A DNA stretch of 61,576 nucleotides, counting the filler. It is 3 parts of 3 records of this genome, joined end to end, with 100 filler letters (N's around TTAATTAATTAA, not from the genome) between each part and the next. Parts side by side here need not be neighbours in the genome. Positions count along the whole stretch, not along the records: positions 23,771 to 31,807 come from SRR20825006_2520; 2 more parts are not named here. One strand, given 5' to 3'. This document shows positions 10,484 through 31,907 of the stretch, in pieces. The notes under the pieces are model-generated. The model was not told the DNA's origin. It searched no databases and saw only the letters and a list, made by a program, of their open reading frames with translations. The position numbers were made by a program, and so were the translations under genes. Each line of letters starts with the position of its first letter. Position 1 is the first letter of the stretch.

Positions 10484-11386
10484 TTAAAATAAAAATCCCA
10501 AGGTAAATAAGACCGAAAAGAAAAACGTGGCCAGTGCTACTTTTTTAAGTTCAGGATCTAACAACGCCGGACTTTCATTTTGCGCCACATACGCCAGATG
10601 TTTTCCTAAAGGAATAAAAACAACACAGGCGACTACAGACCATAAATAGGTATTGGTAAAATGGAAAAACAGTAAACTCGCCACTAGCGCTCCTACGATT
10701 AAAAAGTAGTGATAGAACTTCGATTTTTTAGGCCCTAGAAAAACCGCCAATGTATTCTTTTTTGCACGCGCGTCACTCAACCGATCTCTCATATTGTTGA
10801 GGTTCAAGACCGCTATGCTCAAAAAGCCAACAGTTAATGCCGGAAGAAAAACAACAGCATCCAGCTGTGCTGCATATAAGTAGTAACTCCCTGCCACGGC
10901 CACAAGACCAAAAAAGATAAATACAAACAAATCTCCAAGTCCCATATATCCGTAAGCACTTTTACCAACTGTGTATTTTACGGCAGCAAGAATGGCCAAC
11001 AAACCCAACACAAAAAACAACACAGATTCTAAAAAGCGTTCTGAGCCAAATGCGGTATAAATAAGTGCGATACTGATCAAAAGCGTTACCGAAGCGGTAA
11101 AAACCATTCCGTTTTTTAATTGCTTGGCTGAAAGCAGTCCGCTTTGCATTGCTCTTGCAGGACCAATGCGTTCGTGATTATCGGTCCCTTTAACACCATC
11201 GCCATAATCATTGGCAAAATTAGATAGAATCTGAAATCCTAAAGTTGCCAATAACGCCAGAATACAAATATCCCATCTGAAAAATCCAGAATTAAACGCC
11301 ATTGCGCTTCCTACAATAATCCCTGAAACGGAAAGCGGCAACGTACGAAGTCGGGCTGCAGAAACCCACGCCTTAACTGGTGTCAT
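10484..11386 (-). CDS. menA: 1,4-dihydroxy-2-naphthoate octaprenyltransferase
   Basis: AARLRTLPL, NFANDYGDGVKGTD, NNMRDRLSD motifs of the UbiA family. Confidence 0.93.
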   Translation of the reverse strand: MTPVKAWVSAARLRTLPLSVSGIIVGSAMAFNSGFFRWDICILALLATLGFQILSNFANDYGDGVKGTDNHERIGPARAMQSGLLSAKQLKNGMVFTASVTLLISIALIYTAFGSERFLESVLFFVLGLLAILAAVKYTVGKSAYGYMGLGDLFVFIFFGLVAVAGSYYLYAAQLDAVVFLPALTVGFLSIAVLNLNNMRDRLSDARAKKNTLAVFLGPKKSKFYHYFLIVGALVASLLFFHFTNTYLWSVVACVVFIPLGKHLAYVAQNESPALLDPELKKVALATFFFSVLFTLGFLF

Positions 11387-11585
11387 AATTGAATCTTTAG
11401 CACAAAAATACGCTTATAAAAGGGTTTAAAGAAACGAGCAATTATAATTTTAAATGCTTTAAAAAGATATCGAAAGCGTTGTAGTGATTTCTAAAAATAG
11501 TATTTTAAACCTGATTTTGAATGAACTAACAGTTCAAGACAAAAATTCACACCTTGAATTGACAACCACTGTTTAAAAGATTACT

Positions 11586-13334
11586 ATGAAAAAACTTCTA
11601 CTTTTTAGTTTGCTACTTTCTGTCATTGTAAGCTGTAATGAAAATAAAAAAACGTCAAATACCTCAACAGAACCAGAGCAATCCATTGACAAAAAATGGT
11701 GGAAAGAAGCCATCGTTTATCAAATTTACCCGAGAAGTTTCCAAGACACTGATGGTGATGGTGTAGGAGATTTACAAGGAATCATCAACCGGCTAGACTA
11801 CGTGAAAGATCTTGGAGTTACGGCGGTATGGCTTAATCCGATTTATAGTTCGCCCAATGATGATAACGGGTATGATGTGAGCGATTATAGAAACATAATG
11901 AGTGATTTTGGCACTATGGAAGATTTTGACACGATGCTTTCTGAGATGCACGCCAGAGATATAAAGCTCGTGATGGATATTGTAGTAAATCACAGCAGCG
12001 ATGAACACCCGTGGTTTAAAGAAAGTCGAAGCTCGCGAGACAACCCTTATCGCGATTATTACCACTGGTGGCCGGTAGAAAAAGGAGAACCACCTTACCG
12101 TTATAGTCTTTTTGATGCAGAAGGAAACGCCTGGAAGTATGACGAAAAAACCAACGCCTACTATCTGCATTACTTCTCTCAAAAACAACCTGATTTAAAT
12201 TGGGAGAATCCAAAAGTGCGGCAAGAAGTTTACGATATTATGACGTTTTGGGCAGAAAAAGGTGTTGATGGTTTTAGACTTGATGCATTTCAGTTTGCAG
12301 CAAAAGACACCACATTTCCTGAGTTTCCTAAAGGTTTTGAGAAAAACTTCATTCAGTATTACGCCATGCAAGATGGTCTTCATGATTATTTAAAGGAAAT
12401 GAATGAGCAAGTTTTTAGCAAATATGACGTGATGAGCGTGGCCGAAGGCGCAGGTAGAACGCTTGAAGAAGCACACGAACTCGTAGATGCAGACCGTAAC
12501 GAGATCAATATGGCCTACGCCTTTGATGGAGTGGATATTCCTAAAGTAGAAGGGTATAAACTTTCAACTTTTAAAGAAACCTTCTCAAAATGGGACAGTG
12601 CTTTTGCAGACAAAGGGTGGATTTCCATTTTCTTGTCTAATCACGACCAAGCCCGTATGGTAAGTAGGTATGCAAATGACAGTCTGCCGTATCGTGCTCC
12701 ATCTGCAAAAATGCTCAACACGTTTATTTTAAGTATGCGTGGTACACCCTATTGCTATTTTGGGGACGAATTGGGAATGACCAATAATCCTAAACTTCAA
12801 AATATTGAAGATTACCAGGATATCGCCGCCATTAACGGATACAAAAAAGCAAAAAGTCAAGGTGAAGATATGGAAACTTTTATGCAGAATTTACGCTTTG
12901 GCTCCCGCGATCATGGCAGAACCCCGATGCAATGGAATGCTTCAGAACATGCAGGCTTCACTTCCGGGAATCCTTGGTTGCCTTTAAATCCTAATTATGT
13001 TGACGTAAATACCGAAGCAGAACTAGCCGATGAAAATTCGGTATTAAATCATTTTAAAAAGATGACTGCTCTAAGAAAAGAATCAGATGTCTTGATTTAT
13101 GGAGACTACGAGCTTCTCTTACCCGAACATTCGCAAGTATATGCGTACACACGCAGTTTAGGCGATGAGCAGTTTCTTGTTATGCTCAATTTTAGCAAAG
13201 AAAAAGTTTCGGTAACACTTGAAGAGCTCGGCAACTTTTCAGAGCTAAAAATCAACAATTATTCTAATTTGAATAAACAAGCTAACGAGCTACAGCTTGA
13301 ACCGTATCAAGCGGTGATTTTGGCAAAATCTTAG
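11586..13334 (+). CDS. GH13 alpha-glucosidase / oligo-1,6-glucosidase, lipoprotein
   Basis: Lipobox IVSC; WWKEAIVYQIYPRSF, DIVVNH, QPDLN, DGFRLDA, NHD, RTPMQW. Confidence 0.92.
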   Translation: MKKLLLFSLLLSVIVSCNENKKTSNTSTEPEQSIDKKWWKEAIVYQIYPRSFQDTDGDGVGDLQGIINRLDYVKDLGVTAVWLNPIYSSPNDDNGYDVSDYRNIMSDFGTMEDFDTMLSEMHARDIKLVMDIVVNHSSDEHPWFKESRSSRDNPYRDYYHWWPVEKGEPPYRYSLFDAEGNAWKYDEKTNAYYLHYFSQKQPDLNWENPKVRQEVYDIMTFWAEKGVDGFRLDAFQFAAKDTTFPEFPKGFEKNFIQYYAMQDGLHDYLKEMNEQVFSKYDVMSVAEGAGRTLEEAHELVDADRNEINMAYAFDGVDIPKVEGYKLSTFKETFSKWDSAFADKGWISIFLSNHDQARMVSRYANDSLPYRAPSAKMLNTFILSMRGTPYCYFGDELGMTNNPKLQNIEDYQDIAAINGYKKAKSQGEDMETFMQNLRFGSRDHGRTPMQWNASEHAGFTSGNPWLPLNPNYVDVNTEAELADENSVLNHFKKMTALRKESDVLIYGDYELLLPEHSQVYAYTRSLGDEQFLVMLNFSKEKVSVTLEELGNFSELKINNYSNLNKQANELQLEPYQAVILAKS

Positions 13335-13420
13335 CTACGCTTTAGAAATTATTTAATAGCGCTAAAAGCGGTTGCAACGCATTGAATAAGTAAATTCAAA
13401 CACAACCTAACACCGCTACT

Positions 13421-13954
13421 ATGAATACTTCTTACTTTTTTAAAAACTTAACTATGATCCCTGAAGTTTTTCTGGGAACACTTTTTATTTTCTTGCTCGT
13501 TGTAGTACTGACGCGAATTTTTGGACTGAAAAGTTTCAGTAAAATGACCGGCTTTGATTTTGTCATCACAGTTGCCATTGGTAACATTATTGGGATGAGC
13601 ATCAACTCGAGTAAACCGGCAATTCTACTGGGGGCTTTTATATTACTCGCGCTTTTTGCTTTGAATTACGCAGTAACCCTATTGCGCTTCAAGTCAAAAA
13701 AAGCTGAAGATCTTATTGATAATGATCCCTTGCTGCTGATGGAAAACGGTCAAATATTAGAAGAAAATATGAAAGCCAGTAAAGTGACTCAGGCCGAATT
13801 GCAGTCAAAATTACGTGAAGCCAATGTAATCAGATTGAGTCAGGTAAAAGCGGTGATTTTAGAAACTACCGGAGAAATAAGTGTACTGCATAGCAATGAT
13901 CAAAGCATCACGATCGAAGATTACATTATGGGCGACGTGATCAGGCAAAAGTAA
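13421..13954 (+). CDS. DUF421/YetF family membrane protein
   Basis: GLKSFSKMTGFDFV, KLREANV, AVILETTGEISV. Confidence 0.85.
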   Translation: MNTSYFFKNLTMIPEVFLGTLFIFLLVVVLTRIFGLKSFSKMTGFDFVITVAIGNIIGMSINSSKPAILLGAFILLALFALNYAVTLLRFKSKKAEDLIDNDPLLLMENGQILEENMKASKVTQAELQSKLREANVIRLSQVKAVILETTGEISVLHSNDQSITIEDYIMGDVIRQK

Positions 13955-14146
13955 ATGACTTTTCCAACGCTTGCTTGAAGTACGCTCCTCCAATTATTCA
14001 AATAATCCTTTGAATTTCAGTTGATTTAAGCAGGACACTACAGGTTAGACAAATGCAAACCCTTAATTAATTTTACGGGGATATTAGCGAACACCATGTT
14101 CTTCGCAATCGATATCGCTAATAAAGTTTAATCATACGTAGTACAC

Positions 14147-23670: not shown

Positions 23671-23770
23671 NNNNNNNNNNNNNNNNNNNNNNNNNNNNNN
23701 NNNNNNNNNNNNNNTTAATTAATTAANNNNNNNNNNNNNNNNNNNNNNNNNNNNNNNNNNNNNNNNNNNN
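23671..23770. other. Artificial contig-joining linker
   Basis: N44-TTAATTAATTAA-N44 (stops in all six frames); base composition changes abruptly across it. Confidence 0.97.
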
Positions 23771-25079
23771 CTTCTGGATGCTGCACATCATGGATTATGA
23801 AAACCGCAAGGATTTCAACAATATGTTTGTTATCCTGTCGGGGTGGACCGTGCTGTGGCTTGCCTTGACCGGTGTTGTCATGTTGGTGGAAAACTTCCGC
23901 CGTGGCGATTTCAATCTGGTTGCAGCAGTTCGGCAGCGGGGTGATACCAGAAAACTTCTGGTGTCTGACGGTGGTAGTCATTTTGAGCGCGAGGTTATCA
24001 GTCAAGGACGCAAGACCATGTTTGATGCGTTGGCGGCGGAAGATATTCATCTACCGTCCACCTGCGGCGGCGGTGGGACATGCGGCCTGTGCCGGGTGCG
24101 CATGACTCCGGTTCCAGTCGCTACAGCCGCAGACTTGCGGCAGATACCTGCCAGTGAAATTGAAACGGGCTATCGTCTTGCCTGCCAGCACCAATCTGAC
24201 GTCGCGCAGGAGATCATTGTGGCAAGCGATCTGCTGTCGGCACAGGATTTTGAGGCGGAGGTTGTGTCAAGCCGGTTCGTGACTCCGTTTATCTGCGAAC
24301 TACGTCTGCGTCCACCATCCGGTGAGTTGCTAACCTTCCGGCCGGGCAGCTACATGCAGGTGACGATTCCGCCTTATAGCACGACATTGTCTGCTCTAGC
24401 CAATCTGCCTCAACCTCTGAAAAATGCCTGGGCCGAAAGCCATGCTCTTCATCAGGTAGGCACAGAGGAAACGTTGCACCGTACCTATTCAATGGCCAAT
24501 GCGCCTGAGGAACTCGGGGCGGACTTTATGCTGAATGTCAGGGCTGCTTTACCGCAGAATGGCAGTGTAGGCGTTCCTGTCGGGGCCGGCTCGGCATATA
24601 TGTGCGGACTGAAGGCTGGAGACATGGTGAAACTGCGTGGGCCTTTCGGCGATTTTGCCCTCAAGGACACCACGTGCGAGAAGATCTTTATCGGCGGTGG
24701 GGCCGGGATGGCACCGCTCAGATCCATGATCATGCATGCGCTGCGTAATCAGAGGGAGAACACCTCGATGACTTTCTGGTATGGTGCTAGGACGAGCGCG
24801 GATATTTATTATCAGGAAACATTTGAGTCACTGGAAAAGGTACATCCAAACTTCAACTGGTATGTTGCCCTGTCAGAAGCGACAAGCACTGACAGGCAAG
24901 GATATACCGGCATGATCCACGAAGTGGTGCGTCGCGAATATCTGGAGGGTCATAAAACCCTTGATGAGTGTGACTTCTATCTGTGCGGTCCGCCCAAAAT
25001 GCTGGAAGCCACGTTGGCCATGCTCAAGGAAATGGGCGTGGATGACACCCGGATAGATTTTGACGATTTCGGCATCTGA
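23771..25079 (+). CDS. 5'-truncated fusion: PepSY-associated TM region + 2Fe-2S ferredoxin + FAD/NAD-binding reductase (NqrF-like)
   Basis: Frame open from the contig edge (FWMLHIMDY...DFNN + TM helix), then CGGGGTCGLC, RLACQ, RTYSMAN, IGGGAGMAP, WYGAR, YLCGPP, FDDFG. Confidence 0.85.
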
Positions 25080-25776: not shown

Positions 25777-26493
25777 ATGTTGGGGCTAGTGAATGTTGAG
25801 GATTTTATAGCTAGAATCCGGCAGGTTGACGGTACGGATGATGTGAGCCGGATATTCACCGAAGAAACCAAAGCTCTTGGTTTTGAACATCACACATGCA
25901 TTTCCGTCGTCGACCTGAACAACCCGCCTCTCGATGCCATCCAGGTGTTCCGATTTCCCCAAGCCTGGGTGGAATATTACATCCGCGAGGAATATTATAA
26001 ATACGATGTCGTGATCAAAACCGTGCTGAAAAACACGGGCCCTTATCTATGGAAGGCGCTTGACGTATCGGACAAACGTAATCGGCAAATTTTTGCTGAA
26101 GCAAAGGAGGCCGGTATTCGAGACGGCCTGACAATCCCGATCGCTCTGCCTGGGCATTATCCCTGCAGCATCAACATGGCTGGTGATCATACGGATATTG
26201 ATCCGCTCAACTACCATATTGTCCATTTGATGGCGGAATATTATCTCCTGAGAATTGTGGAACTATCGAAGTCCAATCGCAGGCTATTCGATCCGCCTGA
26301 TCTGACGCCGCGGGAGCTTGAATGCCTGGTCTGGATGGCAAAGGGAAAAAGTGACAGCGAGATTGGCGATATCCTGTCGATTTCCCATCGGACAGTGAAC
26401 GGCTACATCGAAAACATCCGCAAGAAAATGGATGTCGGCACGCGCACCCAGGCGGTGGCACTTGCGATCGTTTGTGGCCTCATCGCGCCCTGA
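25777..26493 (+). CDS. luxR: LuxR family AHL-responsive regulator
   Basis: Autoinducer-binding residues FPQAW, YYKYD, PYLW, DGLTIP; HTH LTPRELECLVWMAKGKSDSEIG; adjacent to luxI. Confidence 0.93.
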   Translation: MLGLVNVEDFIARIRQVDGTDDVSRIFTEETKALGFEHHTCISVVDLNNPPLDAIQVFRFPQAWVEYYIREEYYKYDVVIKTVLKNTGPYLWKALDVSDKRNRQIFAEAKEAGIRDGLTIPIALPGHYPCSINMAGDHTDIDPLNYHIVHLMAEYYLLRIVELSKSNRRLFDPPDLTPRELECLVWMAKGKSDSEIGDILSISHRTVNGYIENIRKKMDVGTRTQAVALAIVCGLIAP

Positions 26494-26724
26494 CGCTGGC
26501 GATACGGGGCTATCGTTGCCCGCTCCCTAATCATGATGGCTCACTTTTGCGCCGCCCGTGGCCTTTCAACCGGATGGAAATTTGCCCGCCTTGCGTCTGC
26601 GAGGGTGGCCCGTCGAGTCTCCGTTTATTTTGACGCGACAACACACCTTTTAGATTGTTGTTATACAGCTAGAAAGAGAAAAAAGTTTCACTATCCTATT
26701 GTAAATGAACGCGCTTTCCGTGAC

Positions 26725-26740
26725 CCCGTATTTTTACGGG
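26725..26740 (+). promoter_or_regulatory. Putative lux-box-like operator
   Basis: Perfect inverted repeat CCCGTA-TTTT-TACGGG ending 60 bp upstream of the luxI ATG. Confidence 0.5.
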
Positions 26741-26800
26741 TTTCTTGCCCTTCCATAATTTCGGCACGTTGGCTCCAAGCCATTATTTAGGGGCAAGACG

Positions 26801-27427
26801 ATGATCGAAATTATCACGTTATCCAACCGGCAGGCTTATGCGCCACAACTGGATCAGATGTTCCGTCAACGCCACGCGGTGTTTGTCGAGCAGTTGAATT
26901 GGGTTTTGCCGGAAGTTTTCGACGGGCGGGAGGTCGATGCTTTCGACACCGAGGAAACGGTCTATCTGCTTTCGCTGGACGACGCTGGCAATGTCCAGGG
27001 GTCCAGCCGCCTGAATCCCACACTGAGGCCCCATCTTATGACGGAAAGTTTCTCTCATCTGGTGGATGGCGATATCCCGAGGGGACCTCATATCTGGGAA
27101 AGCTCCCGGACCTGTATTCCGGAAGAGAACCGCAGCAAGGGCATCCTTGGAAAATTGTTTCTGGCCATGGCGGAAACGAGCCTGCTGTTTGGTGTTCAGC
27201 AAGTGACTTTTGTTTCAACGCCAGCATTTTGCCAGATCATTCAAAGGGCGGGATGGGGGTATGTGCCGCTTGGCGTGCCCAAAGCCAATGCCAGTGGTGA
27301 AGAAAGTATTGCCTACAGCTTGATTATCAATCCGGTGGCCCTCAAAAACATGCGTCACAAGCATCAGGTTTCCCGACCGGTAATCAGCGTCATCCCGACA
27401 CGCCTGACTGCCTCCGTTGCGGCATAG
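26801..27427 (+). CDS. luxI: Acyl-homoserine-lactone synthase
   Basis: FRQRHAVFVEQLNW, GREVDAFD, SRLNPT, IWESSR conserved LuxI residues. Confidence 0.92.
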   Translation: MIEIITLSNRQAYAPQLDQMFRQRHAVFVEQLNWVLPEVFDGREVDAFDTEETVYLLSLDDAGNVQGSSRLNPTLRPHLMTESFSHLVDGDIPRGPHIWESSRTCIPEENRSKGILGKLFLAMAETSLLFGVQQVTFVSTPAFCQIIQRAGWGYVPLGVPKANASGEESIAYSLIINPVALKNMRHKHQVSRPVISVIPTRLTASVAA

Positions 27428-27446
27428 GCGATCAGGGAGGGTGGTC

Positions 27447-27653
27447 ATGAGGCAATGTCAACAAAGCACCAATCCCCCGATGCCAATCATCGGCTGGGAC
27501 AGGCACGATGTCACAATCCTTGAAGGCACAACCTGGCTATCCTGGCCTTGTGCGCGCAAGGATCTGATCGGTTCGGAATGCCCGCCGACCCGGGAAAGCG
27601 GGGCGGGCCAAACCAACGACATGGACAGATTGTTGGATCCGCCCCTTTTGTAG
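27447..27653 (+). CDS. Small ORF (68 aa) of unknown function, candidate peptide/precursor
   Basis: GGGAGG RBS at 27435-27440; fills the luxI-gntR gap; ends inside a GC hairpin. Confidence 0.35.
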   Translation: MRQCQQSTNPPMPIIGWDRHDVTILEGTTWLSWPCARKDLIGSECPPTRESGAGQTNDMDRLLDPPLL

Positions 27654-27659
27654 GGGCGG
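27639..27659 (+). repeat. GC-rich inverted repeat (RNA hairpin) before gntR
   Basis: CCGCCCCT-TTTGT-AGGGGCGG, no U tail. Confidence 0.6.
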
Positions 27660-27675
27660 CGAAGCGAGGAACAAA

Positions 27676-28380
27676 ATGCAAGCACCGTCACATCGGATCA
27701 TGACTGAGAGCGAAAGCGAAAACCCGGTATACGCCGGCATCAAGGCCATGGTCATGGCGCATGAGCTTATGCCGGGCCAGCGCATCCGCCTCGAACCGCT
27801 TGCGGACCGGCTTTTGGTCAGCAACACGCCGGTGCGGGAAGCCTTGATCCATCTGGCCGCTGAGCGCCTGATCAAAGAGGTGCCCAATGCCGGTTTCTTT
27901 ACCAAGGAAATATCCGAATCCGAGGTTAGAGATCTGTATATATTGAACCAGTTGATCCTGGACTGGTCGTTGAGTGTGGTCAGGGATGACGGCCGGGTGC
28001 CGGGCATGCTCAAGCCACCGGAAATATTCGAGGCCGCCAGCGGCGTCAAAACGGACGCACCCGTTCCGACGGTCCAGATGATGGATGAACTTTTCAGGCA
28101 TATCTCAAGGCAGTCCGGAAACGACGACATTGTTCATGTTGTCGGCAACATCGGCGAGCGCACCTATTACACCCGCCTGAAGGAATGCGAACTCTTCCCT
28201 GAAGTGCCTGAAAGTCTGGCGCGACTGTGCCGGACATATTATAGGCGAGACACAAAAGGTCTGCGTCAGGGGTTGCAGGACTTCCACGATATGCGCCTTC
28301 AAATGCTGCCGGACGTCATCCGTCGGATCAGGCAGATAAAACAGGACGCCCCTTGTCCGGCAGTGCCGAAGCGGACCTAG
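27676..28380 (+). CDS. GntR family transcriptional regulator
   Basis: wHTH LMPGQRIRLEPLADRLLVSNTPVREALIHLAAERLI...PNAGF; GAGGA RBS. Confidence 0.9.
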   Translation: MQAPSHRIMTESESENPVYAGIKAMVMAHELMPGQRIRLEPLADRLLVSNTPVREALIHLAAERLIKEVPNAGFFTKEISESEVRDLYILNQLILDWSLSVVRDDGRVPGMLKPPEIFEAASGVKTDAPVPTVQMMDELFRHISRQSGNDDIVHVVGNIGERTYYTRLKECELFPEVPESLARLCRTYYRRDTKGLRQGLQDFHDMRLQMLPDVIRRIRQIKQDAPCPAVPKRT

Positions 28381-28451
28381 GAAATGACCATGCTCTGTGC
28401 ATCCTGGGGTAGGGTCTGTCGCAATTTTCTCTGCCACTGGAGACCTGAGGT

Positions 28452-30293
28452 ATGGCCGGTGTGGTGAGAGAAGCGGCCCGCGTCGCGTGGGACCAGGCGG
28501 ATGGTTTTGTAAAAAGGCGATTGCTGCTCACCCTGTTGTTGGTGTTCACGTCTGCCGCTTTCTCGGCAGTCGCACCCCTCGCGCTCAAATATGCTGTCGA
28601 TGCGCTCGGTACCGGTCAGACGAAGAGTACCACCCTTGAGTTTTTATCTCTTTGGAGCGTCGACACTGCCGGCGGCACCGGCTTCGGACCGATCACACTC
28701 ATTTCGGCCTATCTGGTCAGTCTTTGGGTGTCGCGCTCATTGGGGGAACTTCGCTGGTTTTTGTATGGCACCGCCGACCAGAGATTGGCCCGAAATCTAA
28801 GCCGACGTTTGTTCGGTCACGTCCTGGAACTGCCGCTGAGTTTCCATCTAGGCAGGAAAACCGGTGCCCTGAACCAGACCCTTATACAGGGCCTGTCCGG
28901 CTACAGCATCCTTCTCAACCACACGATCTTCATCCTGTTGCCTGTGGCTGTGGAAATAGCCGTGATCGGCGCTGTGTTAACCATGTTCCTGAATGCACAA
29001 TTTCTCGCCATCCTTGGGGCGTCCGTCATTGCCTACAGCATCTCGTTCGCGTTGGGCGTCAAACAGATAATCGGCCCGAGCAAGACGGTCTCTACCGCTC
29101 AGGTGGATGCCTATGCCAGCCTGACCGACAGTATCCTCAATGCGGAAATGGTCAAATATTTCACGGCCGAACAGCGGATGGGCAATCGCTATGACGAAGC
29201 GCTGTCGAAGACCGAAACACAGTGGGCCAGATTCTACCGGTACAAAACCATGAACGGGCTTCTGATCGCCCTGGTGTTTGCCCTCTCGCTGGGCGCGGCA
29301 ATTCTTCTCGCTGCGAAGCAGGTTATGGCGGGCGAGATGACCTTGGGAGATTTTGTGCTGGTGAATACCTATATGCTGCAGATCGTCAAACCCATGGAGA
29401 CACTGGGTGCAGCCTTTCGGGATCTAGCCTACGGAGTAGCCTTCATCGAGAAAATGACGGCGTTGATGACGCTGAAAACCGAAAACACCGGAATGTCGAC
29501 ACAGGCAGCCGGGAAAGCGATAGGCGCCGGGACCGGTGGCCTGATTTTTAACGATGTAACTTTTTCTTATCTTGAGGGCGATCCGGTTCTCAGGGGTGTC
29601 AGCTTCACCGTGCCGCCTGGTAAAACGCTTGGCATTGTGGGAGGTAGCGGCGCCGGAAAATCCTCGCTCGTTCGGCTGCTTCTGCGCCTTTACGATCCCG
29701 ACAATGGCGCTATCTTGTTTGGGGGCAGTTCGATACAGACCATGCCGCTGGATACACTGCGCGGGGCCATCGCGGTTGTGCCGCAAGATACCGTGCTGTT
29801 CAACGATACCATCGCCTACAATATCGGTCTGGGGCGCCTAGACTGCACACAGGGCGACATAGAGCGTGCAGCGCGTCTCGCTCATATCCATGACAAAATC
29901 CTCGCGATGCCGGATGGCTACCGGACTATTGTCGGGGAGCGCGGGCTCAAGCTTTCAGGGGGCGAGAAGCAGCGTGTCTCGATCGCACGGGCCGTGCTCA
30001 AGAATCCGCACATGTTTGTCTTTGACGAAGCGACCTCGTCCCTCGACACCAATACCGAACGACGCATTCTCGACAATCTGGTTGAGGTTTCAAAGGGTGT
30101 GACAACGCTGATCATTGCCCACCGGCTCTCGACGGTGGTGCATGCGGACGAAATTCTGGTGCTTGACGAGGGCAGGGTGGTAGAGCGCGGGCCTCATGGT
30201 GCGCTCCTCGAAAAAAATGGCCTCTATGCATCGATGTGGCAGACACAGCAGCATGGTGGGAGGCGGGATGGCAGGAACAGGGACATCAGCTAG
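28452..30293 (+). CDS. ABCB half-transporter (TMD+NBD), ATM1/HMT1-like
   Basis: LSFHLGRKTG, NAEMVKYF, GEMTLGDFVLVN, GGSGAGKS, VVPQDTVLFNDTI, LSGGEKQR, FDEATSSLD. Confidence 0.92.
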   Translation: MAGVVREAARVAWDQADGFVKRRLLLTLLLVFTSAAFSAVAPLALKYAVDALGTGQTKSTTLEFLSLWSVDTAGGTGFGPITLISAYLVSLWVSRSLGELRWFLYGTADQRLARNLSRRLFGHVLELPLSFHLGRKTGALNQTLIQGLSGYSILLNHTIFILLPVAVEIAVIGAVLTMFLNAQFLAILGASVIAYSISFALGVKQIIGPSKTVSTAQVDAYASLTDSILNAEMVKYFTAEQRMGNRYDEALSKTETQWARFYRYKTMNGLLIALVFALSLGAAILLAAKQVMAGEMTLGDFVLVNTYMLQIVKPMETLGAAFRDLAYGVAFIEKMTALMTLKTENTGMSTQAAGKAIGAGTGGLIFNDVTFSYLEGDPVLRGVSFTVPPGKTLGIVGGSGAGKSSLVRLLLRLYDPDNGAILFGGSSIQTMPLDTLRGAIAVVPQDTVLFNDTIAYNIGLGRLDCTQGDIERAARLAHIHDKILAMPDGYRTIVGERGLKLSGGEKQRVSIARAVLKNPHMFVFDEATSSLDTNTERRILDNLVEVSKGVTTLIIAHRLSTVVHADEILVLDEGRVVERGPHGALLEKNGLYASMWQTQQHGGRRDGRNRDIS

Positions 30294-30505
30294 ACCCGCT
30301 GGGCTGCCGGGTCCTGAAGGCATGTTGCTGGGCGTTATGTCGGCATGCACCGGCGTCCTTCCGAGCAGTCAGGCATAGCCGGGCACGGAAATAATATATT
30401 TTGAATATAAACTCCGGCACCTCAGCCAGCCCTCGGTATTCTCGGTGTTGTGCGGCCCGACGATCGCCGTGGCCAACCACTGGCAGAGGCAGAATTTCCG
30501 TGATC

Positions 30506-31249
30506 ATGACCGCCGAGAGAACCCATTTTCTGAGCCCGCGCATTTTTCCCTGTGATGTGGACGGCCATATGATCGTGCTCGATCTCGGCGCCGACCGGTA
30601 CGCACGCCTTGGTGACGTGGAAGCGGCGGTGCTCAGGCACCTGTTCGGCGGGCAGGGCAAACACAGTACGCCTGCGCCGCCTAGCCTTGAGGCCTCGCTC
30701 GACAGGCTGGTGGAGGAGGGCATTCTGACCACCGACGCCGTGACGGGCAGGGAGGCTTTTCCTGAGCTGCCCGGGCAAGTCATGCTCGATCTGAAGGGCT
30801 ATCCTCATGACGGTATCCCGAAAATCCGCATGGGCCATATTGTCAACTGTGCCTGCGCGTTTGTGTGCGCCAAATTCATGCGCCACTTTCATTCGATCGA
30901 ACGTACCGTTCTGCGGGTCAAAAGCCGGCGGGAGCGCGCGCTTGCCAATGCCGGTCGCCCGAAAAGCAAAAAAGAGGGGCGCTTGCCCGAGGTGGACCTG
31001 GCACGTATCCGCGAATTGGTCGAGATATTCCGCATCCTCAAGGGGCTGTTCTACACCGGAAAAGGCCGATGTCTGTTCGATTCACTCACGCTCATCGAAT
31101 TTCTGGCGATCTACCGGATCTATCCGCTGTGGGTGTTCGGGGTGCAGATGGGGCCGTTTGTGGCGCATTGCTGGGTGCAGGATGACCGCTTTATCTATAA
31201 CGACAGCGCCGACAGCACGGGCTCTTTCAAGCCGATCATGAGTGTCTGA
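30506..31249 (+). CDS. Lasso peptide biosynthesis B protein (fused RRE + transglutaminase-like leader peptidase)
   Basis: N-terminal RRE-like IVLDLGADRY; C-terminal RCLFDSL...VFGVQMGPFVAHCWVQ...ND (Cys-His-Asp, Transglut_core3). Confidence 0.9.
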   Translation: MTAERTHFLSPRIFPCDVDGHMIVLDLGADRYARLGDVEAAVLRHLFGGQGKHSTPAPPSLEASLDRLVEEGILTTDAVTGREAFPELPGQVMLDLKGYPHDGIPKIRMGHIVNCACAFVCAKFMRHFHSIERTVLRVKSRRERALANAGRPKSKKEGRLPEVDLARIRELVEIFRILKGLFYTGKGRCLFDSLTLIEFLAIYRIYPLWVFGVQMGPFVAHCWVQDDRFIYNDSADSTGSFKPIMSV

Positions 31250-31266
31250 ACCTGGGGGGCGTTGTC

Positions 31267-31807
31267 ATGTACCGTTATATTGCGTTTCTATGGAACGAGG
31301 CCGACGACAGTGCCACCCGTACCGCCGGATTTCTCAGGGACCATTTCATGGGCACGGCCACCAAATGGGAGACAGCTTATAGCGGCTCGGGCTTGCAGGT
31401 TTTGCATGCCGGGGAGGAGAAGGGGCGTATGCAGGCCTATCCGGTCAGCCCAAAGCAAGGAGCAGAGGCTGGTGGCGTCATCCTCGGCAAACTTTTCGAC
31501 CGCCCGGACGCCTCCGATGCGCTCCCCGGTAATGTCGATCTGAGCGTAGGCGAGGCACGCAGGGTGATTGAAACTGCAGGGCGCTACCTTGTCGACAATT
31601 ATTGGGGCGCGTGGGTGGCGTTTCTCCAGCACGGGTACAAAAAACATGTGCTGGCGGACCCGATTGGCACCTTCAGTTGCTTCCATACCCACTATCGCGG
31701 CGTGGAGATATATTTCAACCATGTGCCTGACGTCGCTGCATGCAAGTTTCTCGCTTTCACCATCGATTGGTGCGGGGTTGCCAGATATTTGAGGTATGCC
31801 ACGGGCG
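31267..31807 (+). CDS. Asparagine synthetase-like lasso cyclase (C protein), 3'-truncated
   Basis: Directly follows lasso B; AsnB-like N-domain (VILGKLF, YWGAWVAF, DPIG, IDW) lacking the Cys1 of a true glutamine amidotransferase; ATP-binding domain lies beyond the contig end. Confidence 0.75.
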
Positions 31808-31907
31808 NNNNNNNNNNNNNNNNNNNNNNNNNNNNNNNNNNNNNNNNNNNNTTAATTAATTAANNNNNNNNNNNNNNNNNNNNNNNNNNNNNNNNNNNNN
31901 NNNNNNN
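31808..31907. other. Artificial contig-joining linker
   Basis: N44-TTAATTAATTAA-N44. Confidence 0.97.

Follow-up and report, generated by a model that had tools for sequence, protein, structure and literature searches.

A luxR-luxI quorum-sensing pair heads an exporter-bearing, predicted isopeptidase-type lasso-peptide cluster of Kordiimonas

We analyzed a 61,576-nucleotide stretch of DNA (the window; filler included) in which a first, sequence-only reading had proposed a lasso-peptide biosynthetic cluster headed by an acyl-homoserine lactone (AHL) quorum-sensing pair, with six co-oriented genes in the order luxR, luxI, gntR, ABC transporter, lasso B, and lasso cyclase C. The window comprises three contigs joined by N44-TTAATTAATTAA-N44 linkers at positions 23671-23770 and 31808-31907, and their G+C contents are ~40% (left), ~54% (middle), and ~51% (right). 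The luxRI-lasso locus is carried solely by the middle contig (23771-31807; 8037 bp), where all six genes were found on the plus strand together with two non-coding features:

25777..26493, plus strand: luxR, AHL-receptor-type transcription factor, 238 amino acids; PF03472 (Autoind_bind) 77.8 bits, PF00196 (GerE) 64 bits
26724..26741, no strand assigned: candidate lux box, 18-bp inverted repeat CCCCGTATTTTTACGGGT; conserved in the related locus L002, position matched in the related locus L017
26801..27427, plus strand: luxI, predicted acyl-homoserine-lactone synthase, 208 amino acids; PF00765 (Autoind_synth) 93.9 bits against a cut-off of 24
27639..27659, plus strand: GC-rich hairpin with an 8-bp stem and no U tail, 17 nt 5' of the gntR ATG
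27676..28380, plus strand: gntR-family regulator, 234 amino acids; PF00392 45.8 bits
28452..30293, plus strand: ABC half-transporter, 613 amino acids, putative lasso-peptide exporter (D); PF00664 (ABC_membrane) and PF00005 (ABC_tran)
30506..31249, plus strand: lasso B, 247 amino acids from the ATG; NF033537 61.5 bits against a cut-off of 33, PF13471 (Transglut_core3) 58.4 bits against 26
31267..31807, plus strand: lasso cyclase C, first 180 codons; the frame continues in the near-identical locus L001

The spacers from luxR to C measure, in order, 307, 248, 71, 107 (212 from the B ATG), and 17 bp; the gaps, initially described as short, are so in three of the five cases and not in the others. 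The absence of a U-tailed terminator between luxI and B was confirmed by the terminator scan, which lists none in those intergenic spacers, although the U-less hairpin at 27639-27659 lies there. The profiles proposed for checking the gene assignments match in the window for PF13471, PF00765, PF03472, and PF00392, and PF00733 matches only the full-length C protein encoded in L001. An Rfam search of the middle contig at E-values up to 0.1 gave no match.

The middle contig aligns over all 8037 bp, with 5 mismatches and 0 gaps (99.94% identity), to L001, a locus of the record titled MAG: Kordiimonas sp., chromosome 1, complete sequence (MAG, metagenome-assembled genome); L001 coordinates equal window coordinates minus 20505. 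In the window the lasso C reading frame ends at 31807 owing to the contig end, and the resulting 180-amino-acid fragment has no family match. The same frame in L001 runs to 618 amino acids, and its product matches PF00733 (Asn_synthase) at 63.5 bits against a cut-off of 21. We therefore assign the fragment at 31267-31807 to C on the basis of the 99.94% identity of the contig to L001; the AsnB-like cyclase originally proposed is thus supported by the full-length protein and not by the window fragment alone. Among the NCBIfam models, NF033535 scored 52 bits against a cut-off of 525 and NF033561 scored 49 against 300 with full-length C.

An isopeptidase, a TonB receptor, and a precursor had been expected past the contig end, and L001 carries all three, the precursor as a candidate. 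Beyond the precursor, on the convergent strand, L001 carries genes for the isopeptidase, the TonB-dependent receptor, a FecR protein, and an ECF sigma factor. The isopeptidase belongs to the AtxE2 family (NF033523, 599.7 bits against a cut-off of 400), and the 925-amino-acid receptor has an N-terminal STN signaling domain followed by the plug and the barrel. By its predicted gene products, the locus is an isopeptidase-type lasso cluster with an added exporter and with luxRI at its head.

The putative L001 precursor is an open reading frame (ORF) of 27 codons at 12837-12920, located after C behind an AGGAG site and encoding MMIALGQVSEVTGKEGSPKEDNGLPRI. Lasso precursors usually carry Thr as the second-last leader residue and begin their core with Gly, Ala, Ser, or Cys, an Asp or Glu following at one of core positions 7-9. 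The predicted L001 product has Thr second-last in the leader and an acidic residue at core position 8, and its leader aligns with the precursors of 11 other loci; its predicted 14-residue core begins with Lys, outside the usual Gly/Ala/Ser/Cys set. A six-frame scan for the pattern [LIVM]G..[SA]..T. with an acidic residue 7-9 positions further on revealed one or two precursor-like ORFs in every one of the 12 related loci covered, immediately ahead of B or immediately behind C. The same scan of the window contig yielded no such ORF, and the 212-bp ABC-B spacer, where the Emcibacter and Marinicaulis precursor genes sit, is empty in the window. We consider the small L001 ORF a credible candidate for the lasso precursor.

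The precursors of the Kordiimonas lineage (L001 12837-12920; L002 12864-12947 and 13096-13182; L017 about 12252-12340) follow the gene order B-C-A, have leaders of only 12-13 residues, and carry Asp or Glu at core position 8. Their predicted core position 1 is Lys in L001, Ile and Leu in L002, and Val in L017. In the remaining nine loci A precedes B, and the predicted core begins with Gly or Ala. The ribosome-binding site ATAGGAGACTAT of the precursor gene is common to L001 and L002. An AT-rich block of ~30 bp, located ~100 bp 5' of the precursor, is near-identical in these two loci (L001 12725-12775; L002 about 12770-12820), and an ATATAAA-N4-TTTATAT repeat occupies the matching place in L017.

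Orthologues of gntR precede the lasso genes in L002, L004, L005, L013, L014, L016, L017, and L019 and are also found in lasso clusters lacking luxRI; the gntR product is thus predicted to be the regulator that isopeptidase-type lasso clusters have in common. Among full-length solved structures, the ABC protein is closest to ABCB7 and the Atm1-type exporters, in line with its ATM1-like label. McjD is not named among the best 60 of its 265 structure matches, and no direct comparison with McjD or CapD was made. The ABC protein is 50-67% identical to its counterparts in L002, L003, L004, and L015, and tblastn placed strong matches (761 and 820 bits) at the same place in L035 and L039. The lasso B frame is open from a TTG at 30401; all 11 of 11 relatives align from the ATG at 30506, which is probably the true start. 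An alignment of 12 B sequences shows C189 and H221 to be invariant and position 234 to be D or E (D234 in the window protein), and a profile built from it matches, over positions 3-68, the RiPP recognition element (RRE) of TfuB1 (6jx3_B) at an E-value of 4.4e-4. The description of B as an RRE joined to a Cys/His/Asp peptidase is thereby upheld. Single-sequence structure searches with the C fragment, lasso B, and full-length C returned nothing meaningful; the RRE was reached by the B profile alone.

Both quorum-sensing proteins resemble solved members of their families. LuxI matches seven solved AHL synthases at E-values up to 1e-7, the best being 5w8a (7.5e-27), and its nearest solved relatives are 5w8a, 6wns, 3p2f, and 6wn0, of which 5w8a and 6wn0 are acyl-CoA-using synthases, so that the predicted AHL may bear an unusual acyl group. 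In the alignment with 5w8a, the R, F, W, E, D, D, R, and E-x-S-R positions, which with their numbering we take to be the conserved AHL-synthase residues, are all identical. Weak FeeM and Acetyltransf_5 matches (GNAT-like fold) were also obtained. LuxI is an AHL-synthase-family protein and a predicted AHL maker. LuxR aligns over its full length to RhlR (best solved relative 7r3j, E-value 5e-22) and also matches the LasR, SdiA, and TraR structures. Residues W64, D77, W92, and G117 are invariant across the 10 cluster-linked LuxR proteins. Five of the six residues that we take to be conserved in the LuxR ligand pocket (W, Y, D, P, W, G) are kept, namely Trp, Tyr, Asp, Trp, and Gly; the sixth, Pro, is Val78. 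The LuxR group formed by Kordiimonas, Emcibacter, and L017/L035 has Val, Ile, or Leu at this position, and the four closest orthologues likewise have V, I, or L.

The combination of luxRI with lasso genes recurs in other genomes, as the synteny check proposed for this locus was meant to reveal. L002, from a second Kordiimonas species, is syntenic throughout, the proteins encoded between luxR and the sigma factor inclusive being 60-70% identical. An Emcibacter MAG (L003, L011, L012) encodes the orthologous LuxR (50%) on the opposite strand, ~6 kb ahead of the ABC gene, and the orthologous LuxI (54%) just past the sigma factor, and luxR and luxI thus flank the cluster. We then searched 101 genomes of the order that holds genome G001 with the lasso B2 and PF00765 profiles. 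Lasso B2 matches occurred at 32 places in 24 of the 101 genomes, and AHL synthase matches at 96 places in 68 of them. A luxI gene was found on the same contig within 16 kb of lasso B2 at 10 of the 32 places, in 10 genomes, and within 6 kb at 9 of these. Genome sizes and LuxI counts predict ~0.27 such pairs by chance, and the pairing therefore exceeds chance. In nine of the ten luxI-linked loci, among them all seven that come in addition to those already described, the luxR-luxI pair immediately precedes the lasso genes and shares their orientation.

The places without luxI were examined as 20 regions, which cover 21 of 22 such places (one at a contig edge in G068 was left out). Seven of these regions carry an isopeptidase gene. 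Three (L025, L032, L035) combine it with a LuxR that has an autoinducer-binding domain, with no LuxI nearby, and the L032 LuxR lacks the DNA-binding domain; the isopeptidase region L039 stops at a contig edge right after gntR; and L021, L030, and L033 have no luxR or luxI within ±10 kb. Altogether, the sample contains 15 loci with an isopeptidase gene; luxI is close by in 8 of them, and a LuxR, with or without LuxI, in 11. A class-level survey returned NF033523 matches over the cut-off in only 2 of 401 genomes, too few for counting.

The gene content between the quorum-sensing pair and the lasso genes varies. Two of the three lineages have a gene for a PhyH-family dioxygenase inserted between luxI and the regulator of the lasso genes (L013 11371-12267; L014 14918-15793; L015 11798-12667; L016 11489-12553; L018 7406-8311; L019 11594-12484); the lineage of the window has none. 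A second complete LuxR replaces GntR directly before the precursor and B in L015 (11008-11736, minus strand) and L018 (8385-9116, plus strand), and no isopeptidase was found in the 20 kb examined at these two loci. L014 has a 779-amino-acid S8 subtilase and a 329-amino-acid AAA ATPase between gntR and the precursor/B (10792-13131 and 13143-14132, minus strand). ORFs of 226, 250, and 132 amino acids that match no Pfam family lie between luxI/luxR and gntR in L002 (6405-7085, plus strand) and L035 (13836-14588 and 14585-14983, minus strand). In genome G010, which has no lasso B2 match, an isopeptidase fragment matching only the first 220 positions of the model (G010:C2:610991-611659) lies ~5.5 kb from a LuxI (G010:C2:604968-605459); this may be a decayed cluster that has retained its quorum-sensing pair.

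The history of the association was approached through phylogenetic trees of LuxI and of the cyclase. The LuxI tree has 51 rows, namely the 10 cluster-linked proteins and 41 of the 86 others (the 42 best-scoring were taken and one was dropped for an odd frame). Cluster-linked LuxI proteins fall into three separate groups, with at least 3 label changes on well-supported branches against a mean of 9.3 in shuffled trees; none of the 500 shuffles was as low. The cyclase tree (21 rows) has the same three groups, L001/L002/L017 with L003 nearby, L013/L014/L016/L019, and L015/L018. Clusters that lack luxRI are scattered through this tree, on which the luxRI label shows no significant clustering (32 of 500 shuffles were as low). 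Genomes G070 and G020, whose clusters lack an adjacent luxI, encode a LuxI belonging to the Kordiimonas-type group at another chromosomal site. The simplest reading of these trees would be an old luxRI-lasso association with later losses and relocations, although a mobile cassette that docked repeatedly may also account for them.

Palindrome CCCCGTATTTTTACGGGT starts 77-80 bp before the luxI ATG and is conserved between L001 (-78) and L002 (-80) in a mostly diverged spacer. L017 has a perfect ACCTGT-N8-ACAGGT box at -74 of luxI and a second one ~344 bp before luxR. The position of the palindrome and the canonical box in L017 are what a lux box serving luxI autoinduction would look like. When every L001 spacer was scanned for strict palindromes, only one 16-mer emerged, in the luxI-gntR spacer, and this is not conserved in L002; a looser 18-mer pattern had many matches inside coding sequence and was treated as yielding chance hits. 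The luxI and gntR genes overlap by 8 nt in L017, and in L013 and L019 the genes luxI, phyH, and gntR follow one another without a gap or share 4 nt (start codons chosen heuristically in each case). GntR-family proteins are mostly repressors, and any quorum-sensing effect on the lasso genes may therefore be of either sign.

Among known systems, lasso gene expression is described as poorly understood (PMC6963729), and isopeptidase-type lasso peptides have been called enigmatic in their biological role, with a siderophore-like cargo role proposed (PMC9266682). A 2022 review describes a GntR regulator, biosynthetic genes, an isopeptidase, a TonB receptor, and a sigma/anti-sigma pair as the 'almost constant' isopeptidase-type architecture (PMC9266682). 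The Kordiimonas locus resembles the astexin/AtxE2, sphingopyxin, and benenodin types described there in having GntR before the biosynthetic genes, a fused B, and an Asn-synthase-like C, and it shares with isopeptidase-type clusters generally an AtxE2-family isopeptidase followed by a TonB receptor and sigma/anti-sigma genes, as well as Thr second-last in the predicted leader (PMC9266682). In contrast to these clusters, it has luxRI at its head, a putative ABC exporter, the order B-C-A rather than A-(C)-B, a predicted leader of 12-13 residues, and a predicted core with Lys as its first residue (the nearest relatives have Ile, Leu, or Val) rather than Gly. Rubrinodin (Xiu et al., 2022, as cited in the review) is named as the one characterized isopeptidase-type case that also has an ABC transporter; the review passage on it mentions no luxRI pair, and the likeness is one of description (PMC9266682). 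The word 'quorum' does not occur in that review.

The adjacency itself has appeared in print as annotation only, an antiSMASH 'hserlactone/lassopeptide' region of Qipengyuania pacifica NZ-96 and Citromicrobium sp. JL477 (PMC9318849). As described, this region resembles the window locus in having genes for an AHL synthase, lasso B2, an Asn-synthase-like protein, a TonB receptor, and an isopeptidase of the AtxE2 family; its organisms are members of another family, and the description proposes or tests no regulatory link (PMC9318849). A luxR-luxI-phyH synteny is known from Sphingomonadaceae (Gan et al., 2015; PMC4288048), and L013, L014, L015, L016, L018, and L019 share it, with luxR-luxI-phyH directly before the lasso regulator. 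In contrast, the window locus lacks phyH, and its gntR follows luxI by 248 bp. The words lasso, GntR, asparagine synth, and transglutaminase are absent from the text of PMC4288048. A dedicated AHL pair beside the cluster that it controls is exemplified by btaR2-btaI2 at the bactobolin cluster of Burkholderia thailandensis, although bactobolin is a polyketide-peptide antibiotic and not a lasso peptide (PMC6963729). Capistruin, the one lasso peptide treated in that source, is entered there with an unknown local regulator, and quorum sensing is described as acting on it indirectly and negatively (PMC6963729). Our full-text literature searches, which covered main texts, found no study of a lasso cluster run by its own LuxRI pair. 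The initial proposal of an undescribed system thus stands insofar as we found no functional study in print, and falls short insofar as the adjacency had been printed (PMC9318849) and the GntR/isopeptidase/TonB architecture was known (PMC9266682). With its luxRI head, and with an exporter as in the rarer isopeptidase-type lasso clusters, the locus is a variant of systems already known in kind.

We consider it moderately probable that luxRI is wired to this isopeptidase-type lasso locus and that the peptide is a density-gated, recyclable shared good. Under the proposed mechanism, LuxI would make an acyl-homoserine lactone, and at high cell density LuxR-AHL would bind the palindrome ~78 bp 5' of luxI and raise luxI transcription. 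This transcription would reach gntR, ABC, B, and C by read-through or act on the lasso genes through the level of GntR. Lasso B would bind the short LGxxSxxTx-type leader and cut it off, C would close an 8-residue macrolactam onto Asp8 or Glu8, and the Atm1-like ABC protein would export the lasso peptide. The secreted peptide would re-enter through the TonB receptor, which would signal through FecR and the ECF sigma factor, and the isopeptidase would linearize the re-imported peptide. We infer density-dependent lasso expression and the order LuxR then GntR, as in the two-tier control first suggested, from gene arrangement and domain content.

A number of observations count against this wiring. 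No lux-box-like site was detected before gntR, ABC, B, or the precursor with the Kordiimonas and canonical patterns in 13-16 loci, and any control of the lasso genes would therefore act via read-through from the luxI promoter or via GntR. The luxI palindrome doubles as a weak terminator-like hairpin (for luxR) in the terminator scan. The luxI-gntR spacer of the window, at 248 bp and with a strong hairpin inside it (27639-27659), makes co-transcription of the two genes less evident than in the relatives, and we regard it in the window as plausible but less secure; the terminator scan does not list this hairpin, and L002 has not conserved it. The precursor gene, with a conserved AT-rich block of its own upstream and a hairpin resembling a terminator downstream, possibly forms a separate transcription unit. 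LuxR has Val at residue 78, the position after the invariant Asp where more distant LuxR proteins keep Pro. Close relatives of the cluster lack adjacent luxRI (L030, L033, L021, L004 from Marinicaulis, and L005 from Rhodanobacter), and one of the two isopeptidase genomes in the class-level survey has no LuxI match at all.

The pair could instead be a neighbor without wiring, that is, a general or mobile cassette inserted beside lasso clusters and inherited with them, while the lasso genes obey only GntR and FecR/ECF sigma. This is suggested by the lux-box-like sites, which occur only before luxI (and before luxR in L017) and never before lasso genes, by the portability of the luxR-luxI(-phyH) cassette, described in other contexts with mobile elements nearby (PMC4288048), by the interspersion of luxRI-less clusters in the cyclase tree with 32 of 500 shuffles as low, and by the same-clade LuxI that G070 and G020 retain elsewhere in the genome. 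Yet 10 adjacencies against ~0.27 expected, the like position and orientation in 9 of 10 loci, the overlap of gntR with the luxI operon in several relatives, the retention of LuxR at luxI-less clusters and its second copy in place of GntR in L015 and L018, and the three groups common to the LuxI and cyclase trees speak against mere proximity. We therefore rate the uncoupled cassette as rather unlikely, and functional coupling is, with somewhat more than even confidence, the best explanation of the luxRI-lasso pairing.

Coupling could also run in the reverse direction, with quorum sensing raising the repressor GntR and silencing the lasso genes at high density, or with the imported peptide feeding back on the circuit. 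The mostly repressive nature of GntR-family proteins and the placement of gntR in or just after the luxI operon would suit such negative control. A precedent comes from Burkholderia thailandensis, in which an AHL-induced regulator represses the capistruin genes (PMC6963729). On the other side, no operator was identified, the palindromes of the luxI-gntR spacer are not conserved in L002, and the sign of regulation is not readable from sequence; we hold this version to be improbable. Less probable by far is a LuxI homologue that serves as a tailoring acyltransferase modifying the peptide, for instance at its unusual Lys1, rather than as a signal synthase. The GNAT-like fold, the weak FeeM and Acetyltransf_5 matches, and the predicted Lys start of the Kordiimonas core agree with this idea, but a cognate LuxR with an autoinducer-binding domain always accompanies LuxI, the conserved AHL-synthase positions are kept, and relatives with Gly1 cores carry the same luxRI pair.

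The surroundings of the locus differ from the cluster itself. A TonB-dependent receptor, a PepSY membrane protein, and a 630-amino-acid PepSY-ferredoxin-FAD/NAD reductase fusion are encoded 5' of luxR (L001 2-4574; window 23778-25079); the last 433 codons of the fusion fall within the window, and its NqrF match scores 328.7 bits. These genes were left out of the system because their context is not conserved in L002. A tested piece of the right contig is 67% identical to the L001 genome, in which nothing matched a piece taken from the left contig, and for this reason we regard the flanking contigs as foreign to the Kordiimonas genome of L001.

Returning to a luxRI pair wired to the lasso locus, we propose, tentatively and with slightly less than even confidence, that an AHL circuit became wired to loci that make, export, re-import, and cleave isopeptidase-type lasso peptides before three deep cluster lineages diverged, and that these peptides are quorum-sensing-gated public goods. 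If so, the peptide would be produced only when the population is dense, and its recovery, together with any cargo, would fall to the TonB receptor, FecR, the ECF sigma factor, and the isopeptidase; the Kordiimonas lineage would add an Atm1-like exporter and cores whose first residue is Lys, Ile, Leu, or Val. Layered control is predicted, by LuxR, by GntR, and then by cell-surface signaling. The Kordiimonas variant would broaden the precursor rules to a 12-residue leader and a first core residue other than Gly, and adding the cognate AHL or expressing LuxR may be a possible way to wake silent clusters. A cluster-linked AHL circuit suggests that these peptides may have a population-level role, like siderophores and other shared goods.

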